The translations under genes and the position numbers were made by a program. From the NCBI GenBank assembly GCA_031835245.2, contig JAVKOQ020000061.1:1-64000 (forward strand): a stretch of DNA of 64,000 bases, read 5' to 3'. The notes under the pieces are model-generated. The model saw only the letters and a list, made by a program, of their open reading frames with translations, did not search any database and was not told the DNA's origin. Shown here piece after piece: positions 720-50,651 of the stretch; position 1 is the first letter of the stretch, and each line of letters opens with the position of its first letter. The stretch is from Balamuthia mandrillaris. Taxonomy: Eukaryota.

Positions 720-2625
720 GGAGAGAAGAGAAAAGAGAGAGAAAGAGAGGAGAAGAAGAAGAAGAAGAAGAAGAAAAAGAAGAAGAAAAAGAAGAAGAAC
801 AAGAAGAAAACAAGAACAAGAACAAGAACAAGAACAAGAAGAAGAAGAAGAAGAAGAAAAAGAAGAAGAAAAAGAAGAAGAACAAGAAGAAGCAACCTTG
901 ACGGATTCTTCAGTCCACATATCCAGGTCAAGCGACCGTATCTTGGAGATGTGAACACCAAGAGAGCGATGAATGCCAGAACATACCAAACATAAGAATA
1001 CTCCTAAGTTTATGGACACCCATCTTGGCTCTGTTTGTTCAGTATCTTATCGTAAGCTTGCCATTGAAGAAAAAGAAAAAGAAGAGCGAGAACAAGAAGA
1101 ACCTGAATCACCACATTCAACACAAACGTGGTTTTCTGGGAGAGCAGCAAACTGAGAAAGGCTTTCAGGAATAGCTCCGTCTCCGTTTACACAGTCCCTG
1201 CTGCTGTGTCTTCTTATCTTGAACATGGAGCCACGACTGGCGGCTCTTTTCCTCATCGCTTCTGTTCTTTGCTCCAATATGAGATTCGCCAACTCGTCAC
1301 TCTTATCTTTTCCTTTCGCATTCTCGTCCTTCTTTTTATCCTCCTCTCTGTCTTTCTCCCTTTCGCTCCCTCTCTCCTTTGCTTTCTTTTCCAAAGCGCT
1401 CTTGTTCTTGCTGGACGTGGTCGAAACCGTTGCAGCAGCTTTCCTTTGCTTCACCCGTGGACTCTCCTCTGATGATGTTGTCGGTAATGTGGATGATGAC
1501 TTTGATGTCGGCATCCTTGCAGAATAAGCTAGGTCGGTGGGCTCGGGAGAGACTTGATGTTTGATTTTGTTGGGTGTAACGGTGTGTCTGTCCTCTCTGG
1601 TGCGTCTCAGAGTTGGAGTTGTCAACAGCCCTTCGCTCAACTTTTGCATTCTGTTCACCCATTCGTTTTGTTGTTCCGCTTTGTAGATAAAGAAAAGGAG
1701 TCAGCAAGAAGGAAGAAAAAGAGAAAAGAGTAAAGCGAAAAGAAGCAGTGCACCGTTTTCGGCTTGAAAGTGATGAACGAGGTTGGGAGTGGCGATGTCA
1801 AAGCCGTTGTTCTTCGTCACTTTGATGGAACAGAGAAACATGCTTATTTTTCCTGCTGGCTCCAAATCCTGTTTTGTTCATTGTTTGTTGTTCAGCTCCT
1901 TTGTTGTTGGTCTTCTTCTTTTCCTTTCACTTTTCTCATAACAACAAAAAAACAAAAACAAAAAACAAAAAAATAACAAAAAATAACAAAAAATAACAAA
2001 AAATAACAAAAATAACAAAAAATAACAAACAAACAAACAAACAAACAAACAAACAAACAAACAAAAAAAAACAAAAAAAACAAAAAACTAAGAAAATAAA
2101 AAAACAGAAAAGAGAAAAAAAAAGAAAAGAAAAGAAAAACAAAAATAACTTCAAAATAAAAATAAATAAATAAATATAACAAAAAACCAAACAAACCTTT
2201 TTGTTCTTATAGTACAACAACTCGTCCCTCTCGAGCACGCACCAGTGCTTGCGCCACCCTTTTATCAGGTTGGAGCTGAGCTTCAGCAAAAAGCCGGACA
2301 GCACCACGTCGTTCAGCCTGGCCTTCATGGTGGAGGTGCGCGCCCGCGCCGCCGTCTCCTGCATTTCCTTCATGTAGATGGACATCTCTTCCGGCAGGGG
2401 GCTTTCCTCGGGCAACACTCCAGACTCGGCGGCCTCTTCTCCTCCATTTTCAGCAAGAGAAGAAGAAGAGGAAGGGGGTTGTTGATGCGGTGAAGAAGAA
2501 TAAACGGTTGAATGGAGCGTTTCGGCGCGTTGCTTATCTTTTTTGTTGAAGATCTTTCCGATGGAGGAGCCGATGCGAAAGGTGGCCGTTTTTTCCTTCT
2601 CCTCTTTCTCTTTGCTCTTGCTCAT
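1..2625 (-). CDS. PH domain + ArfGAP protein (centaurin/ACAP-like), multi-exon, 3' end runs off the window
   Basis: ATG at 2625. PH-like segment [31 protein letters not shown]. ArfGAP zinc finger split over exons: ENHVCVECG...[34 protein letters not shown] (657-1140). Confidence 0.88.
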
Positions 2626-3074
2626 TTCGTTCTTGTTGTTGTTGCGGTGGAGGCTTGTGGGCCGGTTGCTCTTCGTTGTTTTTATTCTTTTGCCACCATA
2701 ACAATAATGAAAGCAAAAAAAAGTAACTTTCGTGTTTGGAATTTGCTGAGGTCAATGAATTGTCTTGATCAACCCGCAACCCCTTCTCCCATAATCCGCT
2801 AGACATGATTTTGGGGAAATTCGCTTGGGCCGTTTCTGTTCTCTGTGTAATGTTATTAATAATGTTATTTTTGCAGACATATTACACTAATATTAATATA
2901 CTGCTATATATTACGTTGGTCCATCCAAGTGGTAATAATATTAGGGTCGATTAACCTAATATATCTATTATTCATAATAATATGTGAGTAAATAAACGGC
3001 TATTAGGCGATGATTTCTATGAAGTCTATTAGGTTGAACATATATCTCTATATCAACTATAAAAGAAAAGCAAA

Positions 3075-4422
3075 ATGCAAGAGGAGGAAGAAACGATGCT
3101 CACCGCAGAGACCTTCTTTCTGCCCGACGAGATCTTTTTGCAGGTGTTGGAGGGGATCCCTGCAAAGGACCTCCTGGCCTCCGTGTTTCTCGTGTGCAAA
3201 CGGTGGAAGCGTAAAGCGTCCGATGACTCTTTGGTTTGTGTGTTTTTTTTTTTTGTGAGATTTTATTTTTGTTTGTAACCAGAAATTGTTTTTTTTTAAG
3301 TGGAAGTCCAAATGTGCTTTGAGGTGGGGCTCTGATGCGGCCCATGAGGCACAGCACTGTGGCGTCACTGATTGGCTGGCTTACTTTTCTGAAAAGTACT
3401 TTTTTGTTGTTCTCCTCGTTTGCTTTGCTTTGCAGCTTGCTCTCTCTCTCTTCCTCCCTCTCCCTCTCCCTCTCCCTCTCTCCCTCCTCCTCTTTTCTAA
3501 CTTTTCTCTTCTCTTCGTTCGTGTGCTCTCTTTGGTTCATTCTCTTGCCGTCTTGCTGTCTTGCTCTGCTCTCCCTGCTCTCCCTGCTCTCTCTCGGCTC
3601 TCTCTGCTCTCTGCTCTCTTGTTCAAAACATAGAGTTCGATTCGAGGCTTTGCCGCTGTTGCCAGTTACTTACCGCAGCTCCATGAAAGGACCTTACCAG
3701 CCCTATTACTCCAACACTGCTTCCACAGAAGACCTCCTTTCCATCAGGAACTTCTTTGAGGTCGGAGCTTTCTGTTTTCAAGAGGGGCAGCTCGCTGAGG
3801 CAATTCGAGCTTTGGAGGTGGAGGTTGTGCGACATCCTATGAACCATCGAGCTTGGGCCTTGCTTGCCAAAGCTCATATGGAAAACGATTGCGACACACC
3901 GTTCGTTCCTTCTTGTTCTTCTTCTTGTTGTTCTTCTTGTCATAACTTTATGGGTGTTCTTTGTTATCTGCTGCTTTCTACTTTACAATAACGGTTGCTA
4001 ATACCTTTGTTGAACTAGGTCGATTTACTGTGCCTGCACAGCGCTTAGAATAGAACCAAGCAACAGAGACGTTTTGTTGGATTTAGCAGTCAGCTTCATT
4101 AACGAAGTTGAAAGTGGCCATGTTTGTTCTCTCTCACACTCTCCCCCTCCCTCACTACTTTCACTATTAATACTGACGACAACGGAAAAAAACAAAACAC
4201 AAAGGCCAGTTACTTTTTGTCGCAATGGCTGTTATATTCTCCTTACAAAGCCAAGTTGGAGGGCTTTACACAATCCAACGTTTCGATGTTTTCTGAAAAC
4301 GAGTTCGCATCAGCAGGCAATTCACTCTCCGCGTTGAAAAAAGTGTTTTCAGAGATTATCGAGGAGCATCCTGATGACGTTGAAGTTAGAATCACTTTAG
4401 GTTTGGCTTCTCTGCTATTCAT

Positions 4423-4463
<41 letters not shown>

Positions 4464-7023
4464 TTCTCTCTCTTCTCTCTCTCTCTCTCTCGGTTTTCTG
4501 TTCTATTTTCAACATTTCACTTACGGAGACTTGAAAAAAGGCGTGCTGGAAACAGCTTCGTTCGACTTTACAAAAGCAATCCAACATTATGAGCAAGCTC
4601 TTAAAGTGGACCCCACTAACTACGCCTTGTGGAATAAACTTGGTCAGTCTCCTGCATTCTCTTTTAGGTGTTTTTAAACAAGACATCATTCATTAATGCC
4701 ATATTACATTCTATATCAGGAGCAACACGAGCCAACTCTACCCTTGCCCTCCATGCCTGTATGTCCAATCTCTTTCATTTTTCATGATTACCTCTCTAAC
4801 TAATGGAGTTTTACTGAACAATAAGGCCATGCATACCAAGAGGCTCTTCGTTTACGTCCAGGATACGTTCGCTGTTTGGCCAACGTTGGCATCGCCCATC
4901 AATTAATGAACAGTCCTCGGACAGCTGTTGCTTGGTGGACCACTGCTCTCTTGTAAGACCTTTTTCCCCCTCCTTTCTTTTCTTCTTTTTTTTTTCCGTG
5001 TCCTCACTTTCGTTTGTTTACTGCAGGCGCAATCCAAATGCAAGACACATATGGGACTATCTCCGAATGCAATTCTTGGAGGATAACACGGAAACAGCTC
5101 AATTAAAAGAGGCAGTTACACGACAGGACGTTTCTTGGCTGCAAAAACACTTTATTGATGAGGAGACCGAACCTCTTTCCGTCATTCCTCCAAATCACAA
5201 CGAACAAGAAGACAGGCCACCAATATCAACGACTGAATCAACAGTGGACTCTTTTTATCAAGATTGGCTACGAAACATGAATCAAGAGTCGGGGAGTGAG
5301 GATCCTCAAGTAAAAGAAGAAGAAGAAGAAGAAGAAGAAGAAGGAGAAAAAGGAGCACCAGAAGAAATGAAGGAAGAAGAAGCAAAACCACAAGGGCGAT
5401 TGTCATTTGCTGAAGTTATGCGGATGATTCAGGAAGGAAAGACGCCAAGCGATGTTCAGCAGATCGATGATAAGCCGCCAAACCCGAATGCTCCGATTGT
5501 GAAAGGCCAAAGGGCTGCTCCTTTGAAGGTATGTATATGTTTTATTATTTCGTTTTCTCGACGACTTTTCTCTTCCACGAATAACCGAGAATTACTTTCT
5601 TAAATAATAGCCGTGGCAACGTGCTAAGAAAGAAAAAGAAACTACATCAATAGAAAAACAAGCGGTAGCAACACAGCAATTCACCAACAACACTAACAGC
5701 AGTCTTCTTAGCAGTTCAACACTAGCGTCAAACTCTGGTACCAGCAGCAACAGCACGTCAACAGTTGCTTTTAACAACTTGAACCAACAACAAACAGACA
5801 GCACAATCACTTCCAAAGGAATGCCCATATTTACAGTTGACGCTTTCACTTCCAAGGTTCTTTCTTCTTTTTTCTTCTACCCTGTGTTTATTGTTAACTG
5901 CTTATTTCATCATGGTTAGCCTTTTGCAGGAAATCCGGCAGCAGTTTGTCTTCTACCCTTTCCCTCAGCTCTTTCCGAAGCTCTCATGTCAAAGATTGCC
6001 GCCGAAATGAATCTCTCGGAAACAGCTTTCGTTTGTCCTCTTCCTCTAGATCCTCTTTCCTCCACTCCTTCGGCAACAAGTTACAAAACAGCGAAGCGTT
6101 TTGGTCTTCGGTGGTTCACGCCTACCAACGAAGTGGCTTTATGCGGACATGCAACCTTGGCCACCGCACATGTTCTCTTTCATGAAGTTAAAGTTCCGCT
6201 GAACAGCATCACGTTCAGCACTCTTAGTGGAGACCTCATCGTGGAACGCAAACGCGTTGACGAAAGGCAAAAGGAACAAGGAGACTCGGAGGAAGGAACG
6301 ATGATGAGCATGAACTTTCCCCAAGGATTTCCTGAACTGGTGGAAATGCCAGTTGAATCAGTGGTTCTTCCTTTGTTAGGCGCCATGGGTTTACACCTAT
6401 CCGATCTTCTTCCTGTTCCTGCTTCTTCGTCTTTGTCCTCTCTTTCTTCATCTGCATCCTCTCAACTGTTTTCGTTTTGTCAGAAAACGAAAAAGTTGGT
6501 ATTGCACCTCAAGTCAGTTCAGCGGCTGTTAGAAGTGAACCCGGATCAAAAAGCGTTGCTGGCTCTTCGGTTTCCCTCCAATGTTCCTGTTCGCGGTGTT
6601 ATGATTACCACTCTCGGCGGTAACTCTACTCTCTTGTCTTCTTTCCCTTGCTACGAGGGTGAGGAGGCTCTGAGACTAAGAGAAGAAAGCATTGCTGTCT
6701 TTCCAACTTGGGATCGTTACGACTTCATTTCACGGTACTTCTCTCCGTGGAACGGCATTGAAGAGGATCCTGTACTCATTTCTCTCTCACTTCTGTCGTT
6801 GCTTACTTCTGTCTTACGTTTTTTCTGATTTGAAAAGGTAACTGGATCAGCACATACAGTATTGGCTGTTTATTGGAGCGAGCTTTTGGGAAAAGACGAA
6901 CTAAGAGCGTTTCAGGCAAGCAAACGTGGTGGTGAGCTGTTCATCCGGTTGGATCGTAGTAGTGGGCGGGTTAGTTTGGAAGGCACCGCCGTCACAGTGT
7001 TTGGCGGCCGACTTCGTGTTTGA
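3075..7023 (+). CDS. Multidomain fusion: F-box + PEX5-like TPR + KPWE-like domain + PhzF/PBLD-family isomerase
   Basis: F-box LPDEIFLQVL...VCKRWK. PEX5-like TPRs AWALLAKAHMEND, LDLAVSFINE, ALWNKLGATRANS, PGYVRCLANVG, HIWDYLRM. KPWE-like LSFAEVMRMIQEGK...PPNPN...LK|PWQ. PhzF motifs VDAF..PFAGNPAAV, EMNLSETAF, LCGHATLA, EDPVTGSAH. I could join all exons in frame with GT-AG introns; stop TGA at 7021-7023. Confidence 0.8.
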
Positions 7024-7204
7024 ATGAATTCACTTCTTTTCCTTCAACCTCTCTTCTCTCTTTTACTCAATTCCTAACAAACAGACAGTCCGAATGAACA
7101 ATTCAAGTCAACAGAGTACATCACAAAACAGAATACACAACATATTTGAAGTACGTGCACTTTTTTTGCCTTCCTCTTTCCCTTACTGCACCTTTCGTTC
7201 GTTT

Positions 7205-8999
7205 CTAGAAACTGTCTTCACTGGATCTATCGTCTTCCTCAAATGCATCATCACTATCCTTCTCCTTCTCCTTCTCTTCTCCTCCGCTGCTGCTGCCACT
7301 CGTCTTGGTTGACGACAACGAAGTCGACGAAGAGGAAGAGCTCGACGGCAGCTTCTCCACTGATTTTTTCCAAAATCTCCACCCACTGGCCTTCCTCTTG
7401 TGCCCCATAGCAGCCGGTGTCTTGGCTGCCTCCGATGCTCCTCCCCCATTCACCGGCAGCTTCAAGGCCGTCTCCTTGGGTACGGCTTCCTCCCTCTCCA
7501 CCCCCCTCCACACCATGATGACGTTGCCGGCGCTGCCACAGAGCAAGCCGTTGCTGCAGACCTTGATGACTCTAACTCCCTTCTCATTCTCATCCCTCAG
7601 CACGAACTGGGACTTGCCCTCTGCATCCCAGATGTAAACTCCTCTCGAGTCAAAATGACCGCTGCTCACCAACAAGCCTTTCCACACTTTGAGGCAAAAT
7701 ACACCGCTGCGTGGCCCCTCGATGACTCTTAGGCACTCTCCGCTCTCCCTCCACACTCGGATGGTCTTATCGCTGCTGCCGCTATAGAGCTGGTCGCCCC
7801 AGGCCAGCAGGCAGTTGACCTGGCCGGTGTGGCCAGTGAGGATCACGTCTGCGGTGCCTTCCTTCAAGTTCCAGCCACGAATGGAGAAGTCCTTGCTGCC
7901 GCTCCAGAGTTTGCGCTTCCAGCTCTTCAGGCAGAGCACGCCGTTGTCGTGCCCTTCCAAGATCTTTATACATTTGCCCTGTTGGTTCCACACGCGGATG
8001 CGCTCCATCTTTTGCCCGCTGGAGATGAGGTAAGAGCGGGACTTGCCCCGAAGAATCTTCAGGCAGTTGATGGTATCCTCGCTCCCTTCCATCACCATCG
8101 CGCAGGAGAGGTTCTCCCGCCAGCAGCGAATGGTTTTGTCCATCGACCCCGTTACCAGAAAGTTCCCCCAACCTTTGAAAGCAGAGAAACGGATGAGACG
8201 GAAGCATTGCATAAGGAAGACGAACGAGAGCGAGAGAGAGACAGACAGACGAGAGAGAGAGAGAGAGACAGAGAGAGACAGAGAGAGAGAGAGAGACAGA
8301 GAGAGAGAAAAGAAACTGTGGAACGAATAAAGAAAAGAACAGCACCTTTGAGAGCGTAGATTCCAGACTCGTGGCCCAGTAGTTTGCCCTTCTCCAAGAA
8401 ACGCAAACCCCTTGGGCCTCTATCCTCCTCCCACACGATAACGGAGGCGTCATTGCTGCCAGTCCACAGCTTGTTCTTCCAGATGGCCATGCACTTGACC
8501 ACGTTCTTGTGTCCCCTCATCACGCTCGAGTGTGCCTCCTCTCCTGGCCACGAGTCTTCCAACTGTGAAATCTGTGTGTTCGAGAAGCAGGAAGCAAGGT
8601 AGAAGAAATGAAGTGCCCAACCAGTGAACAAACAAGCATTAATGAAAGAGAGAGTCAAAAGTTTGTTACCTCCCAAGCTCGTATTGTGTCATCCCCGCTT
8701 CCACTCAACAGACAGTCTTTCCACACTTTCATGCACTCGACCCATCCGTTTCCGAAATGGCCTCTCAGAACGCCCACCTCCTCCACGTCAAAGTGAGTCA
8801 ACAGCTCTTTGTCCATGGGTTCCTCCTGGGTTGCCTTCCGCGGATGGGCTGTGGCCACGGCACCGGAGGTCAGAGGCCCGACGGAAGCTCGCAGAGGACT
8901 ACGCGCATTTGTAGGAGAGTTGAGCGGGCTTTCGTAGGTGGCCAGTACCTCATTGAAGCTTGTTTTCCGAGAGAGTGAATTTGAAGTGCCACCGTTCAT
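7205..8999 (-). CDS. WD40-repeat protein (myosin heavy chain kinase WD40-like repeats)
   Basis: Repeated GH...SGS.D.TIR.W units (GHFGNG...SGSGDDTIRAW; GHKNVV...TGSNDASVIVW; GHTGQV...SGSSDKTIRVW) across three exons. Confidence 0.88.
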
Positions 9000-27431: not shown

Positions 27432-28204
27432 ATGTCCGTCGCAAAGCCTACTCTCACTTACTTCAACGGCCCCGGTCGCGCTGAGGTCCCCCGCCTGCTC
27501 CTCGAGCTGGCCGGCGTGGACTACGAGTGGGTGGGCTTCGCCTACAAGGGCTCCCCCGGCCCCGACTGGGCCGAGTACAAGAGCAAGCACGGGGAGGAGC
27601 TGGCCTTTGGCCAGGTGCCCCGGTACCAGGAGCCCGAGGGTCTTGACCTCGTCCAAAGCAACGCCATCTCTCGCCACCTTGCCAACAAACACGGCTTCAA
27701 TGGTTACCTTTCTCGCTCTCTCTCTTCTCACTCTCTCTCTCATGCTATCAAGATCGACTTTGTCAAACTCATCTTCTTTTCTTCTCTTTCTTCTTCCTGT
27801 TTGTTTGTTTGTGCACAAAAGGCACCAACGAAACAGAAGCTGCTCTGATCGATCAGTTCAGCGAGGGAGTGGGGGAGTTTGCTACTGCCGGCCTCAAGGT
27901 GATTTTTGCTCCCGAGGGCGCCAACAAGGCCGAGCTCCTCGCCAAGTTCCTCTCCGAGGACCTGCCCAAGTGGCTGGGCCACTTTGACCGCGCCCTCGCC
28001 AAGAACGGCACCGGCTTCTTCGTCGGCGACAAGGTCTCCTATGCCGACGTCGGCCTCTTCGTCACCTTCAACTTTGTGTTCAAGCTGCTGGAGGGCGCCC
28101 GCGAGGTCTTTGAGGGCTTCTCCCAGGTGAAGGCCGCCTACGAGAAGGTGGCCAGCCTGCCCAAGATCAAAGCGTTCTATGACTCCAAGCCCTATGGCAA
28201 CTAA
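27432..28204 (+). CDS. Glutathione S-transferase (Tyr-type, sigma/alpha-like), one intron
   Basis: LTYFNGPGRAE, FGQVP, QSNAISRHLA, FFVGDKVSYAD; strong C/G-ending codon bias. Confidence 0.93.
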
Positions 28205-28739: not shown

Positions 28740-38242
<9,503 letters not shown>

Positions 38243-40873: not shown

Positions 40874-43663
40874 CTTCTCTTGTTATTTCGTTCTTTTGTT
40901 TGTTATAGAATGAATATGAACCTCCTCCCAACACCCTTGCAGAAGATACCGAAAGCAGCCTCCAAGTCGGCTCAGTGGCTCACATCACTTCCCTCATTCA
41001 CAATGTTGGTCCCTCCTCTTCCTTGGGATCGCTTTGTACCTGGAACTTTTCCGTTGCTGCCCTTCTCTTTGAAGGCAGCGCTGCTCACGCCTCCAACTGT
41101 GAAGCAAGTTACCATCCAAATCTTAGGGTCTCTTGCGAAGTAGATGCTGCCCCAGGCGACACCACGCCCACCATTTCGGTCTCATCTTTGCCCGAACTTT
41201 CAGGCACTCCATCTTTCAATGTTTCTTTCACTTGCCTGGATGAAGCGGGCATCGAAGTGGGAGGAGAACAGCCTTCTCTGAACGTGATGTTCATTGAAGA
41301 ACTCGGTAATGTTGATGTCCGTGTTGATATCCTCTCTTGGTCCTCAGACGAGAAGGAGGAGACCAAACGGCAGCCAGAAGCCGGCCTGGATGGAGAGGAA
41401 ACCAAAGTACAAAGCAAAAGAAAGCAGGTGAGTTCTCCTCCTATGCTTGGTTCAAGTTCCATACTCACGCATATCCTCGCGATAACACCTCAATATTATT
41501 TGCAAGACGGAAGATGGGGCTATCGTCTTTAATGCAACCATTGCTGTGTTTTTAGAGGCCAACATTTCCGGTGCTGGCTTCGCCAGGGATGTGACCTGCG
41601 GAGTCTTTTTCAACGGAGTAGACGCTCCCCTGCTTTCTTCCTCCTCCGAGTCTTCCCCCTCTTGTGTGGACCATGGCGTGCAGTTCACCACCGATGGTCT
41701 TCCCTTTTGGTTGACAGAATGTACATTCGAGGAGATGAGAGCTGGGATTGCATCCAAAGCACAGGCCATCCTCTCTGTGGATCCACGAGTGAGAGAGTTG
41801 CAAGTGTCCGTGGAATGCGACAGCCCTTTCCCAAACACCATCCAAAACCCAGTCGTTCAACCGGTGAGCTTCCATTTTGTGCACGGTACGCTTCCCTTGC
41901 GTTCCTTACGTCGATCCTCGAGTAATGAACTTAGTTTTTGTTTTTTTACCCCAAACAACAGTGGATGCTATCGACGATGATTCCTCAAGTTCTTCTTCAT
42001 CATCATCATCGTCATCGTCGTCGTCTTCTTCTCCGACAGGAGAAAACAATTCAGAAGAGGGTTTCGCGGGCAAATGGATTTGGGTCACCATCGGAGCGGG
42101 AGGCGGGCTGCTCTTGATCCTTCTCATCGTTCCAACCTTGGCATGCATTGCCTATCGCCGACGCAGAGCCCTGCAAAGAAAGAGAAGAGACATGATCGAC
42201 CTGGAGTCTGCTGATGAAATGGAGGTCTACGCCACTCCCACGGCGTTTTCAAGATCGGGAGCCAGCAAACAGGCCTCAGCCTCAGGAGAGAGAGGAATCC
42301 AATGGGAAATACCATTCTCCGAACTGGAGTTCATTGAGGTGATTGGCAAAGGGTAAGTTCCATTCTCCTCACATCCTCTTTTCTTATGAAGTTGGAGCAC
42401 AAACAATACGTTGTTCCTGAAACAGAGGTTTCGGTGTGGTATGGCGAGGCAACTGGAGAGAAACACCTGTCGCCATCAAACTGGTTCGTTCATTCCTTCT
42501 TCATTTCCTCTCCGGACTTTGGATACGGAGAGACTTACCGGGTTGTTGTTTGTTCTTGATGCATAGTTCAACGAGATCATGGATTCTCCGGCCCTCAAAG
42601 AGAACTTCAAAGCTGAAATGAACATTATGAAGTACCCATCTTTGCTCTCTGACTGAGGCCCTTTTCTTTTTCTGTGCACACTCATTGGTTTCATTCTGTG
42701 TTAAACAAAAAACAGGAACCTGAGACCACACACCAATGTTGTGCAACTGTACGGGGTCTGCATGGAAGAGGACCACCCGTGGTGCTTGGTGACGGAGTAC
42801 TTGGAGAAAGGCGACCTCAAGCATTTCCTTTGCGACAACCCGCCTGAAGGTTATCGGCCCATCATCCAGATGGCCATTCAGGTGGCCAGAGGCATGCATC
42901 ACTTGCACTCGGAAGGCATCATCCATCGTGACCTTGCTGCCCGCAACATTCTCCTCACTTCAGAGCTCTCCATCAAAGTTGGAGGTTTGGTTTCTTCTGC
43001 CGTTTTCTTCTTCCTCCTCCTCCCTCTCCTTCGTTCATGGCTTACGAGCCGTGACAACAGACTTTGGTTTGTCAAGCATGGTGGATGAATCCGCTGGAGA
43101 GTCAAAGGTTCCGATAAGATGGACTGCTCCAGAAGCTTTGGACGGAAAAGGCCAAGCCACAGACAAGTCCGACGTGTGGAGTACGTTCTCTGCTCTTCAT
43201 TGCTCTCATCTCTTTCTCTTTCCTTCTCTCCTTCGTTCTTCCTTCCCTCCTGCGTTCGCCAACCATCCCATTCCTCTGTGCGCCTCTTACTCTTTTCCAA
43301 CAGGTTATGGTGTGTTGCTTTGGGAGATGGTGAATCCGGGAAAACAGCCCTACGCCGGACAGAACAACGTTCAGGTCGTTCTCTCCGTGCTGAACGGAGA
43401 GGTGCTCAGCCTGCCTCCTTCCGCTCCACAGCTGTTGCACGACTTGTTGCACGAATGCTTCCAAATAGATCCCAAGAAAAGGTACCTTCTTCCATTCTTT
43501 CGAATGTTCTCCTTCCCTCTCCTCCCCATTTGGTTGGTGCCGGCACTCTCTGACCAGGTCTTTCTCCTCATCTTCTTCATCCTCTCGTTTGTTGCTTTGC
43601 CCGGCAAAAAGGCCTTCATTCCGAGACATCATTAAGCGGTTGCAAAAGGCCAAAGAAGTTTAG
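39708..43663 (+). CDS. Receptor-type tyrosine kinase / TKL with NxGPS-containing (DUF11/Ig-like) ectodomain
   Basis: Signal peptide. VGNAGPSNA and HNVGPSSS in the ectodomain. TM WIWVTIGAGGGLLLILLIVPTLACIAY followed by RRRR. Kinase motifs IGKG.FGVV, VAIK, HRDLAARN, DFGLS, VPIRWTAPE, SDVWS. Confidence 0.88.
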
Positions 43664-43943: not shown

Positions 43944-44415
43944 ATGAAAGGAGGAGGAGGGCGCGACAGAGCCAAGACGTTCAACTTTAGCGCTGGCCCA
44001 GCCACCTTGCCCACGGAGGTGCTCGAGAGGGCATCCGCGGAGCTGCTAAACTGGCGAGGCTCCGGCATGAGCGTCATGGAAATGTCCCATCGTGGCAAGG
44101 AGTTCATCTCCATTCTTCATCAGGCTGAGGCCGACCTTCGTGAATTGCTGTGAGCAAACTAACTACTTTTTTTTTTCACTTTCTTTTGTGTTGTTGTGAT
44201 CACACTGAACTTTGTTTTGTCGATTCTTGTTGGCTGATGAAAAAACAGTGATTTGCCATCCAACTACAAAGTGTTGTTCCTGCAGGGTGGTGCCACTGCC
44301 CAATTTGCGGCCATCCCGCTCAACATGTTGGCTAACAAGGACAGCGCTGACTACCTTGTCACTGGAAACTGGTCTGACAAGGCTTTTTTCGAAGTACCTT
44401 TTTTTTTTCTCTTTC

Positions 44416-44451
<36 letters not shown>

Positions 44452-46414
44452 CACTCGTGCTCTCTGTTCTCACTCTCACTTTCTTTCTCTCACTGGTTCT
44501 CACTCTGCTCTCTGCTCTCTGCCTAACCTCTTTCGGTCTCTCTCTCTCTCTCTCTCTCTATTTTTCTCTCTATCAAGGCAAAACTCTACTTTAAACCAAA
44601 CATGGTTATGTCAGACTTGCCCAAATTTACTACTGTGCCAGAGCGTGACACGTGGTTCTGCAATCCTGATGCTGCTTACTTTCACTATTGCGACAATGAA
44701 ACCGTTCATGGTGCGTACGTTTCTTTCGTTTTATCATCTATTTTCTTCTTGTTCTTCTTCTCTTCTATCATACCGCTGGTTTGTTCTTCTGGTTCTCTTT
44801 AACAATACGGTTTTCCTATCAGGCATAGAGTTTCCAGCAGACTACTTTGCACAACCAGAGAACAAAGTCTCAGTTCCTCTCGTCGCCGACATGTCCTCCA
44901 ACTTCTGCTCTCGCCCCTTTGATATCACTCCCTACTCAGTCATCTACGCCGGCGCCCAAAAGAACATCGGCATCGCCGGTTTGACCGTCGTCATCGTTCG
45001 CGAGGATGTTCTCTCCGACGAAGAAGGAGATTCAAGAAAGAGCGAGAGGCATCTTTGTCCCACCATTCTCGATTGGCAGCTTTATGCCGACAACGAAAGT
45101 TGTCTCAACACTCCTTCATGCTACGCTATCTACATGGCTGGACTTTGCTTTCGTTGGTTGTTGGACCAAGCAAAGAAAGAAGAACAAGGAGAAGGAAGCT
45201 CGTCGAGTTCAAGCAAGAAGCGATCTCCGTTGGAATGGATCGGCCGACGCAACGAACGGAAAAGCAAGCGACTCTACGATTTCTTGGACCAAAGTAAACT
45301 CTTTCGCTGTCGCGTGCAGGACAAACGTTACCGCTCACGCATGAACGTCACTTTTGGCTTTGCTCATGGAGCGGATCCGGAGCTGGAAGCCCTTCTGGTG
45401 AAGGAGGCCGAAGGGAGATTGTTGTTGGGACTGAAGGGCTATCGCACGTTGGGAGGATTTCGAGCTTCTCTCTACAACGCAATGACCGAAGAAGGAGTGG
45501 AACGGTTGGTGGCGTTCTTGAAAGAGTTTGAGCAGAAGCACGCTTTGCACAAGATGTTGCAGAAGAGGAAGATGAGAGTGGTGTTGGGATCTTCTTCAGT
45601 GTACAGGAAGGCGGTGTTGAAGGAGGAAATGGGATTTAAGGAGTTTGTGACGATGAGCCCTGACATTGACGAGAAGAGCATTCGTAAGCATTTTCCCCGC
45701 CTCTTTCCCTCCTTTCTCTTCTCTCTCTTTTTCCCTCTAAGTGCTTTCAAACGTGTTGCAGGTGATGATGATCCGAAAAAAATGGTTGTGAAGATTGCCA
45801 ATGCGAAAGCTGATGCTCTCCTTCCACTGGTACATACTTCTTTTCTCTCTCTCTTTCTCTTCTCCTTTCTCTCCACATTTGTATCCAATGCTGATTCTCT
45901 GTTTGCACAAAAAAAGTTAAAAGAAGGAGCATTGCTGATAACGTCTGATCAAGTGGTGATGTGCAACGGCGAAGTCAGAGAGAAGCCAACCAATGCTGAG
46001 CACTGTAAATCCTATCTGCGGAGCTATGCCCAACACCCCGCTCAGACCATCTGTGGTGTCGTGGTCACGAATACTTCAACTGGTTTGTTCTTCTCTTTCT
46101 CTCTTTCTTCCTTGTGCATTTGCTTTTCTTCTCTCTTTCTGCAACTTAACAATAACGAATGAACAAACAAACAAACAGGAAAACGTTATGAAGGAGTGGA
46201 TATCGCTGTGCAACACTTCAAACCCATCCCAGAAGAAGCCATCCAAAAGCTGATCGACATCGGGGATGTGATGCACTGCTGCGGCGGGTTCGTGGTCGAA
46301 CAAATGGAGGAGTGGTTGGGCGCTTTGGAAGGAGAGATAGAGTCCGTTCGAGGTCTGCCCAAAGCGCTTACCCTTCGTCTTTTGCAGCAAGCTCTCTCGG
46401 AAAGGTCATCTTAA
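43944..46414 (+). CDS. serC: Phosphoserine aminotransferase fused to a C-terminal Maf (YceF-type) nucleotide pyrophosphatase
   Basis: PSAT motifs [41 protein letters not shown] (PLP Lys), [10 protein letters not shown]. The same exon continues into Maf motifs [15 protein letters not shown], then [24 protein letters not shown]. Confidence 0.88.
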
Positions 46415-48839: not shown

Positions 48840-49099
48840 CTTTAAAGGTATAATAACCGGGTCGACACGAAATAATAGACCAGGAATGCTGCAGCTTTTG
48901 TGGACGATTTTTGCAGGATATGATTGAAATTTGGACGAAAAAATTTGAATTTTTCGAATGAAAATTGAATGAAATTTGGATGAAAAAATTTGACTATACC
49001 ATTTTTTTTTTTGCTATTTAAAAATCATTTATGTAATAAAGCCCAACCACGACAGACAGGTTTGAACGCCAAACAACAACAACAACAGCACCAAATACT

Positions 49100-50651
49100 A
49101 TGTCAAGCCAGAGCCTCCACACCGCCAAATCCATTCTCTCCATTCGCTCACCTTCTTTGGCCGCCTCTGCTCTTCGTCTCTCTCCTGGCCGCTGCTTCTC
49201 CTCTCACTGCTGCCCCTCTTCTTCGCCCTCCAGCCCTCCCGCCCTTCTTCTGGACCGCAGCAAGCAGAAGACGATGAAGGCGGCGGTCTTCAAGGGGGCC
49301 GACCGCATCCTCCTCGAGGAGAAGCCCATCCCCAGGCCCGGCCCCGGCGAGGCCCTCATCAAGATCACCACCACGACCATCTGCGGGACGGACGTGCACA
49401 TCCTCAAGGGCGAATACCCCGTGGAGAGAGGGCTGACCATCGGCCACGAGCCTGTGGGGGTGATCGCCGAGCTCGGCCCCGGCCTCCAGGAGAAGCAGGC
49501 CTGCGGGGGATACCAGGTGGGGCAGAGGGTGGTTGTCGGCGCCATCACGCCCTGCGGGCAGTGCTTCAGCTGCTTGTCCCACCATTCGTCGCAATGCGGA
49601 GGAAAGGTTTGCTTCCGTTTCGTTTCGTTTCGTTCGTTTCGTTCGGTGTTGTCGTTCCCGTTTCGTTCTAACCACTCGCCACCACCACAAATGAAACACA
49701 GGCCATGGGAGGATGGCGCTTTGGCAACACGATCGATGGCGCGCAGGCGGAGTACCTGCTGGTGCCGGATGCAATGGCCAACCTGGCGCCCATCCCCGCC
49801 GGCCTGTCCGACGAGCAGGTGTTGATGTGCCCTGACATTATGAGCACCGGGTTCAGCGGGGCTGAGAGCGGAAACGTGAATATCGGTAGGCAAGTTTTTT
49901 GAGAGAAAGAAGGAGAAACGGCAGAGGAGAAAGAGAGAGAACGAAGAAAGAAAAAGAAACTACAAATGAGCAAGGACACGACCGATAAGATACTCATCCA
50001 TTGTCTTTCCACACCAATGTGCGCAGGAGATAAAGTGGCCGTCTTCGCACAGGGACCCATCGGCCTCTGCGCCACTCTGGGAGCGAAGCTTCGGGGGGCT
50101 TCGATGATCATCGCTGTTGACAGCAATCCCATCCGTCTGGAGATGTCCCGCCGACTCGGTGCCACTCACACCATCAACTTCCGACAGGAGGGAGACGTGG
50201 TGAGGAAAATCCGAGAGGAGCTGACGGAGGGGCGTGGCGTGGATGTCAGCATCGAGGCTTTGGGCCTGCAGGAGACCTTGGAGAGCTGTTTGAAGGTATT
50301 GAAGCCGGGAGGCACGTTGTCCTCGTTGGGAGTCTATTCAGGAAAGTCGGTGCAGCTCCCGTTGGACGCCTTCGCCGCCGGTTTGGGTGACCACAAGGTT
50401 TGTGTTTTAACTTTGTTGCATTCTTGCTTGTCTCTCTTACGCGTCTTCTCTCTGTGTTTGAAAAGTTGGTAACAACGCTATGTCCCGGAGGCAAAGAACG
50501 AATGCGTCGCTTGATGGATGTGTTGGCCTCCGGCTCTGCTGACTTGCGTCCGTTGGTAACCCACCACTTCAAGCTGGATGATATTGAGAAGGCGTATGAC
50601 CTCTTTGCCCATCAGAGGGATGGTGTCTTGAAGGTTGCCATCAAGCCTTAA
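49100..50651 (+). CDS. Zinc-dependent medium-chain alcohol dehydrogenase (bacterial-like) with N-terminal presequence
   Basis: TICGTDVH, GHEPVG, structural Zn motif CGQCFSC...C, PDIMSTG, AQGPIG; three introns. Confidence 0.92.

Follow-up and report, generated by a model that had tools for sequence, protein, structure and literature searches.

A Spliced F-Box–TPR–PEX39–PhzF Fusion Gene in Balamuthia mandrillaris: A Candidate SCF Receptor for Peroxisomal Targeting Signals

Introduction

PEX39 (human C6ORF226, yeast Yjr012c) was named in 2024–25. SCF receptors are typically laid out with an F-box next to a domain of substrate-binding repeats. CHIP combines a TPR domain with a U-box, and CRL2 C-degron receptors read C-termini. 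Little is understood of how cells dispose of peroxisomal enzymes left behind in the cytosol.

According to the accessible part of PMC12173945, PEX39 is cytosolic and entered neither YG gels nor Xenopus peroxisomes. In the accessible text of PMC13591263 and PMC12339391 it occurs in two contexts, stand-alone in opisthokonts and PEX14-fused elsewhere; fusion to PEX14 outside opisthokonts is reported in PMC12339391 and the corresponding preprint. The sole extra domain named in the legend of Extended Data Fig. 1a (PMC12339391, accessible part) is the opisthokont ‘X’ region. Plant PEX14 is treated in the available part of PMC13591263, and PEX5 paralogues in that of PMC8172628.

Balamuthia mandrillaris has peroxisomes, PEX5, PEX7, PEX13 and PEX14 (PMC7549135, table 1 and supplement). 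The presence of a separate canonical PEX5 is deduced from 52% identity over 66% of the Acanthamoeba castellanii PEX5 (PMC7549135, supplement). In both B. mandrillaris and A. royreba the matches to PEX5 and PEX14 are near each other, and in A. castellanii the locus numbers of PEX5, PEX14 and PEX13 are neighbouring (PMC7549135, tables 2, 4 and 5). The accessible text of PMC12339391, most of its supplementary files and the preprint mention neither Acanthamoeba nor a PhzF fusion. No description of an F-box–TPR–PEX39–PhzF architecture was found in the accessible text of the literature searched.

Gene Structure and Transcription

The DNA analysed, referred to below as the window, is a stretch of 64,000 nucleotides of B. 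mandrillaris (contig JAVKOQ020000061.1). The gene occupies positions 3075–7023 of the plus strand and consists of 12 exons (3075–3233, 3301–3395, 3634–3900, 4019–4121, 4205–4400, 4541–4642, 4720–4758, 4826–4952, 5027–5528, 5611–5856, 5920–6771 and 6838–7023). The model, which is based on RNA joints, GT..AG introns and open translation, encodes 957 amino acids with a single terminal stop. RNA evidence over 2800–7300 comprised one contig set (X1) and three raw-read runs. Ten splice joints were taken from RNA, seven of which are backed by raw reads, and the eleventh (3900/4019) was deduced from adjoining pieces of a single contig; all 11 introns have GT..AG borders. A 1411-nt RNA contig connects the upstream exons as far as 5303, and a separate contig spans the joint within the KPWQ motif. 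A B. mandrillaris protein of 952 residues at NCBI (P0001), labelled just “PhzF family”, is 96.4% identical to the product.

The product of 3075–7023 is a genuine, expressed and conserved fusion of four domains: F-box, TPR, PEX39 and PhzF. The initial annotation described the KPWE–PhzF half correctly and left the F-box and the PEX5-type TPR domain, located upstream in the same frame, unnamed. In the AF2 model of the full protein (27 sequences in the alignment) the mean pLDDT is 74, and the pTM of 0.47 suggests domains without a fixed mutual arrangement. The ESM Atlas gave leads below 0.9 only, to PhzF and PEX5.

The neighbours identified by Pfam are ordinary, and none is peroxin-related: a PH domain (1939–2751, minus strand), glutathione S-transferase (27647–28201, plus), DNA polymerase epsilon (28743–37233, minus), a protein kinase (42793–43632, plus) and a zinc alcohol dehydrogenase (49040–50469, plus). 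The downstream gene (7208–8419, minus) encodes a WD40 propeller with generic WD40 matches and is not treated here as PEX7. At 44378–46159 (plus) a class V aminotransferase domain is followed by a Maf domain in one open frame, an unusual pairing.

Orthologues and Distribution

A word-limited protein search with residues 100–530 returned 50 proteins. Besides P0001, two of them carry TPR, KPWE and PhzF: P0002, which clusters with ELR14885 of A. castellanii Neff, and P0003 from Luapeleamoeba hula. All four domains, the F-box included, are present in P0052, a continuous ORF of 941 residues belonging to the same 90% cluster as ELR14885. P0003 is devoid of the F-box; it is 5′-partial by alignment, though the source labels its ORF complete. 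In P0056 (349 residues, 2880-nt contig) KPWE is fused directly to PhzF without TPR, and this protein may be either a truncated ORF or a real two-domain short form.

Another word-limited search, with a profile of four KPWE sequences, yielded 15 proteins and 29 metagenome loci. The proteins include five PhzF fusions, five fragments resembling the same exon and five PEX14-domain proteins (four labelled plant). Two of the 29 loci, L001 and L002, represent the same gene, and most of the others match plant-type PEX14. The model of L001, from a metagenome amoeba, was built by hand without RNA support; it is open over 640 residues with no stops, includes F-box, TPR and KPWE, and runs into PhzF, inside which the contig ends. 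The remainder of the gene is carried by the near-identical L002. Intron column and phase are common to the window and L001 at nine of the ten comparable introns. At the tenth the phase is common, and the column is two positions off in one alignment and the same in another. The named sources are acanthamoebid amoebae, and, the searches being word-limited, the range could be wider.

These sequences bear on the question of whether the gene could be an artefact of modelling, or a read-through of two neighbours encoding F-box–TPR and KPWE–PhzF. The public annotation of A. castellanii Neff contains a 563-residue protein beginning after the TPR domain, as such a split would predict, and no one RNA record covers the window gene end to end. 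However, the unbridged interval (5304–5366, the poly-Glu repeat) falls within a single open exon; this exon 9 contains both the end of the TPR domain and the PEX39 domain in one frame, and independent fused copies are found in P0052, P0003 and the L001 model. An artefact is thus very improbable.

F-Box

The F-box (LPDE...VCKRW...LW) is encoded by exons 1 and 2 at 3120–3330 of the plus strand. Both PF12937 and PF00646 matched above cut-off. The PF12937 score is 36.1 bits in the window (cut-off 24.3) and 46.9 bits in P0052; the domain is above the Pfam cut-off in the window protein, P0001 and P0052, and its motif is visible in the L001 model. With 31% and 48% identity to orthologues, the F-box ranks lowest in conservation among the folded domains (TPR, 35–47%), and it is poorly modelled by AF2 (pLDDT about 40–58).

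TPR Domain and the PTS1 Pocket

The TPR domain of the PEX5 type (3737–5091, plus strand, residues ~120–385) was recognised by PDB PEX5 matches, Foldseek and pocket motifs. Its best PDB matches are PEX5 structures (E 4e-29), to which Foldseek on the AF2 model gave TM scores by target of up to 0.89 for the predicted fold. PDB 4eqf (PEX5R/TRIP8b) was also among the matches, both by sequence and by Foldseek. The pocket residues N202, E203, N305, K306, A309, N313, R336 and N340 are equivalent to N415, E416, N526, K527, A530, N534, R557 and N561 of human PEX5, the human numbering having been counted by hand along the chain; the motif SFINE is the equivalent of human N415/E416. The pocket residues E203, K306, A309, N313 and R336 are thus kept along with the three Asn. 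Asn415, Asn526 and Asn561 of human PEX5 bind the PTS1 terminus (PMC3328432, accessible part), and the three PTS1-binding Asn are present in all four orthologues compared.

In a midpoint-rooted tree of only 14 rows, the six TPR domains of the family lie on one side of a branch with 100/99 support versus eight other PEX5 sequences, and their branches are long compared with those of canonical PEX5. Two further B. mandrillaris proteins encoded on other contigs, P0053 and P0201, are TPR-only paralogues with the equivalent of Asn526 changed to His; P0053 gave no Pfam matches to F-box, KPWE or PhzF.

No PEX5-type Cys was found in the first 15 residues of the window protein. The N-terminus contains no WxxxF/Y array, bar one non-conserved WLAYF within a helix; three full-length PEX5s have 5–6 such motifs. 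Because an F-box replaces the N-terminal Cys and WxxxF array of PEX5, the four-domain protein is, to judge from its sequence, not a shuttling import receptor.

The TPR domain is followed by an acidic linker (5092–5399, plus strand) with a poly-Glu run and one FxxxW motif, 20–27% identity to orthologues and low pLDDT. At least one WxxxF or FxxxW-like motif occurs in a loop of each of the four orthologues at positions that are not conserved (5253–5267 in the window, residue 427 in P0052, residues 111–119 in P0003, residues 234 and 299 in the L001 model). These motifs are weak: they are reached by 151–650 of 5000 shuffles (650 for the window FxxxW) with a pattern picked after looking.

The TPR domain could have been repurposed, like that of vertebrate PEX5R/TRIP8b, for SKL-like C-termini of non-peroxisomal targets, and the protein would then be a general SCF receptor of C-terminal degrons. 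PEX5R, represented by the 4eqf match, shows that a PEX5 paralogue can act outside import (PMC8172628, accessible part), and this explanation is compatible with the long branches of the family and with the TPR-only paralogues of Balamuthia, in which N526 has already become His. It is nevertheless decidedly unlikely, since the most conserved complete domain is PEX39, whose known partner is PEX7 and which links the protein with import into peroxisomes.

PEX39 Domain and the KPWQ Motif

The PEX39/KPWE domain (DUF5572) is located at 5400–5619 of the plus strand and comprises the helix LSFAEVMRMIQ, the linker GKTP..DDKPPNP and KPWQ. The peptide running from LSFAEV to APLK and continuing with PWQ is in frame, as proposed initially, at 5400–5528 and 5611–5619 (K at 5526–5528). 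Its assignment to the KPWE domain of PEX39 and plant PEX14 was borne out by an HMM search: PF17733 (KPWE_dom, cut-off 27) gave 36.5 bits (E 5e-9) on the exon-9 frame alone, without the spliced PWQ, 44.3 bits on full-length P0001 and 27.2–38.5 bits on orthologues.

The GT..AG intron at 5529–5610 of the plus strand, inside the K|PWQ motif, is spliced, as had been assumed. It is skipped by one X1 contig (depth 20.3; its shorter side measures 121 letters); X1 is the only source of this joint, the three raw-read runs having zero depth across 5367–5668. An intron is present at the identical LK|PW position in L001 and L002.

The PEX39 domain is 60–62% identical to three orthologues and is the most conserved complete domain of the protein (linkers, 6–27%). 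The spacing from Gly to KPW equals 30 in all ten sequences compared. K-P-W is invariant, and the fourth position is occupied by Q in the window, Q, E or K across orthologues and D in one plant PEX14. A helix is predicted by AF2 at residues 483–491. The hydrophobic moment of this helix does not exceed that of shuffled sequences either in the window (reached by 292 of 2000) or in plant PEX14 (322 of 2000). Pfam gave no PEX14_N match in the four-domain protein, which is therefore neither a stand-alone PEX39 nor a PEX14 fusion.

Of the single changes made in human PEX39, W61A did the most damage and E62A the least (PMC12339391, accessible part). Since orthologues vary between Q, E and K at the latter position and E62A was the least impaired, the exchange of E for Q would hardly matter, and loss of PEX7 binding through it is unlikely.

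The main rival to the SCF-receptor reading discussed below is that the protein is a relocated PEX39. As a cytosolic import helper it could extract PEX7 from the pore, reload PTS2 cargo and hold PTS1 cargo for PEX5, with the F-box controlling only its own turnover. The helix–linker–KPW domain is complete and has the spacing of plant PEX14. PEX14 fusion is reported outside opisthokonts (PMC12339391, accessible part), yet in the 484-residue GENSCAN model for the PEX14 of B. mandrillaris no [KR]PW is visible by eye, only KPYQ at the place where one might look for an intact PEX39 motif (PMC7549135, supplement, accessible part). No amoebozoan PEX14 was found among the 15 matches of the word-limited KPWE profile search. 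Moreover, the PEX39 level must stay low (PMC12173945 and PMC12339391, accessible parts), which an F-box could enforce. However, the GENSCAN model may miss exons, the profile search was word-limited, and an import helper needs neither a conserved PTS1 pocket nor an F-box directly beside it. We regard this alternative as rather doubtful in its own right; it is compatible with the SCF-receptor reading, and both can hold.

PhzF Domain

A Ser/Thr/Asn/Gln low-complexity linker (5620–5820, plus strand; 6–13% identity to orthologues, pLDDT <50) leads to the PhzF/PBLD/YddE-family isomerase domain at 5821–7020 of the same strand. The domain is supported by PF02567 (188 bits), TIGR00654 (above cut-off) and its motifs, and Foldseek gave the modelled fold a TM score by target of 0.91 to 1s7j. 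The linker, NLSET, LCGH, EDPVTGSAH (split by the intron 6772–6837) and the GRLRV end are all as the initial annotation described them. The motifs NLSET (E646), LCGH (H689) and EDPVTGSAH (D895) are kept, and we take their Glu, His and Asp to have active-site roles; the Foldseek matches include the structure of a PhzF E45Q mutant.

Identity of the domain to orthologues is 50–54% (66% over the 29 residues covered by L001), and the motifs are intact in every orthologue covering it. In a quick tree of 128 rows, the eight labelled PhzF rows of the fusion family fall inside one 12-row clade (SH-aLRT 95), whose remaining four rows comprise P0126, the stand-alone P0058 and two near-copies of P0055. Among PDB entries, uncharacterised family members match better (E 8e-32) than true PhzF does (E 5e-7), and no phenazine genes were found among the 77 long open frames scanned in the window. 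Two-cysteine racemases and epimerases of the PhzF fold have Cys in both active-site motifs. Such an assignment does not fit here: Cys is present in the first motif, LCGH, and the second carries Thr or Asn (DPVTGS, DPVNGS). On the basis of these residues, the domain may be a real isomerase or a ligand-sensing and dimerising module.

A PTS1, whether terminal or internal, was rejected (C-termini of the family are RLRV, LRAY, LRAI and VRVQ), and the PTS2 pattern had no matches in the 957-residue protein.

The peroxin modules could deliver the PhzF enzyme to the peroxisome or into its interior, either as a fellow passenger of PEX7 or PTS1 cargo or by tethering it at the docking site, where it would process a metabolite. 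This is consistent with the intact motifs, with the clade that unites all eight labelled rows, with the KPWE–PhzF pair standing alone in P0056 and with the weak diaromatic motifs. Against it, PEX13 displaces PEX39, which is not imported (PMC12173945, accessible part), only one of 152 motif-selected proteins has a PTS1-like C-terminal tripeptide, so there is no sign of a peroxisomal family, and the F-box is left unexplained. Delivery of this kind is unlikely. The same applies to the ferrying of PhzF into the peroxisome suggested at first, given a cytosolic, non-imported PEX39 (PMC12173945, accessible part) and the missing PEX5-type N-terminal Cys/WxxxF array.

Proposed Role

The gene is spliced and conserved with its four domains, has kept the pocket and motif residues and is missing the PEX5 shuttle region. 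Its PTS1-reading module (TPR) and its module of the PEX7-binding type (PEX39) are, on comparison of orthologues, both under selection. The initial annotation proposed a bridge between the PTS1 and PTS2 import machineries. A link to both routes is supported by the anatomy, that is, the PEX5-type TPR domain with its PTS1 pocket kept; the F-box in the same protein, however, speaks for ubiquitination instead of transport.

The protein could act in the cytosol as an SCF substrate receptor whose targets are PTS1 proteins and complexes of PEX7 with PTS2 cargo, a reading to which we assign a probability of about 0.45. Skp1/Cullin1 would be recruited through the F-box. C-terminal PTS1 tails would be held by the TPR domain, and PEX7, either empty or loaded with PTS2 cargo, by the PEX39 domain. 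Un-imported peroxisomal proteins, or PEX7 itself, would then be ubiquitinated and degraded. All the binding events, the ubiquitination and the cytosolic location are predicted. This is the simplest reading because the reading modules are conserved, the F-box replaces the docking and recycling parts of PEX5, and PEX39 is cytosolic and not imported.

Several points weigh against the SCF receptor. The diaromatic motifs in loops could mean PEX14 docking rather than a free cytosolic role. A ligase destroying PTS1 cargo would be in competition with import and would require regulation not visible in the sequence, and the PhzF domain is given no clear job. The F-box is weakly conserved and poorly modelled, P0003 is without it, and P0056 comprises KPWE and PhzF only. 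In a fuller version, which we offer tentatively and at somewhat less than even odds, an SCF receptor of acanthamoebids would treat PTS1 and PEX7-bound PTS2 as degrons, clearing un-imported enzymes or shutting import down. It would perhaps be gated by a metabolite through PhzF, and possibly it is the only PEX39 of these amoebae.

With an F-box and both signal-reading modules united in one natural protein, whether targeting signals can act as degrons becomes a question directly testable in vitro. An orphan eukaryotic PhzF/PBLD family is hereby tied to peroxisome biology, which gives a lead to its substrate. The four-domain architecture is concealed by the label “PhzF family protein” and by the way the Acanthamoeba gene model is split.

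Comparison with Known Systems

Each domain is known, and the combination is new to the literature searched; it provides a third PEX39 architecture beyond the two published. The domain shares with PEX39 and the plant PEX14 domain the PF17733/DUF5572 arrangement of helix, linker and (R/K)PW, and its Gly-to-KPW spacing and PPNP linker are those of plant PEX14. Unlike PEX39, it sits between a PEX5-type TPR domain and PhzF in a protein with an F-box, and the fourth residue of its motif is Q, E or K. The TPR fold and the PTS1-pocket residues are common to PEX5, PEX9 and PEX5R/TRIP8b, whereas the window protein has an F-box instead of the N-terminal Cys/WxxxF array and belongs to a separate clade. 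With the PhzF/YddE/YHI9/PBLD superfamily the C-terminal domain has in common the fold (TM by target up to 0.91, from the model) and the motifs NLSET, LCGH and EDPVTGS, but here it is fused to peroxin modules.

SCF receptors, CHIP and CRL2 C-degron receptors presumably offer the nearest parallel in layout, a ligase-recruiting module beside a repeat domain gripping a free C-terminus. To our knowledge, no ligase reading PTS1 or PEX7 in such a manner has been described. In contrast to those C-terminus-reading ligases, the reader in the window protein has the fold of a PTS1 receptor and is joined to a putative PEX7 clamp and an enzyme domain.
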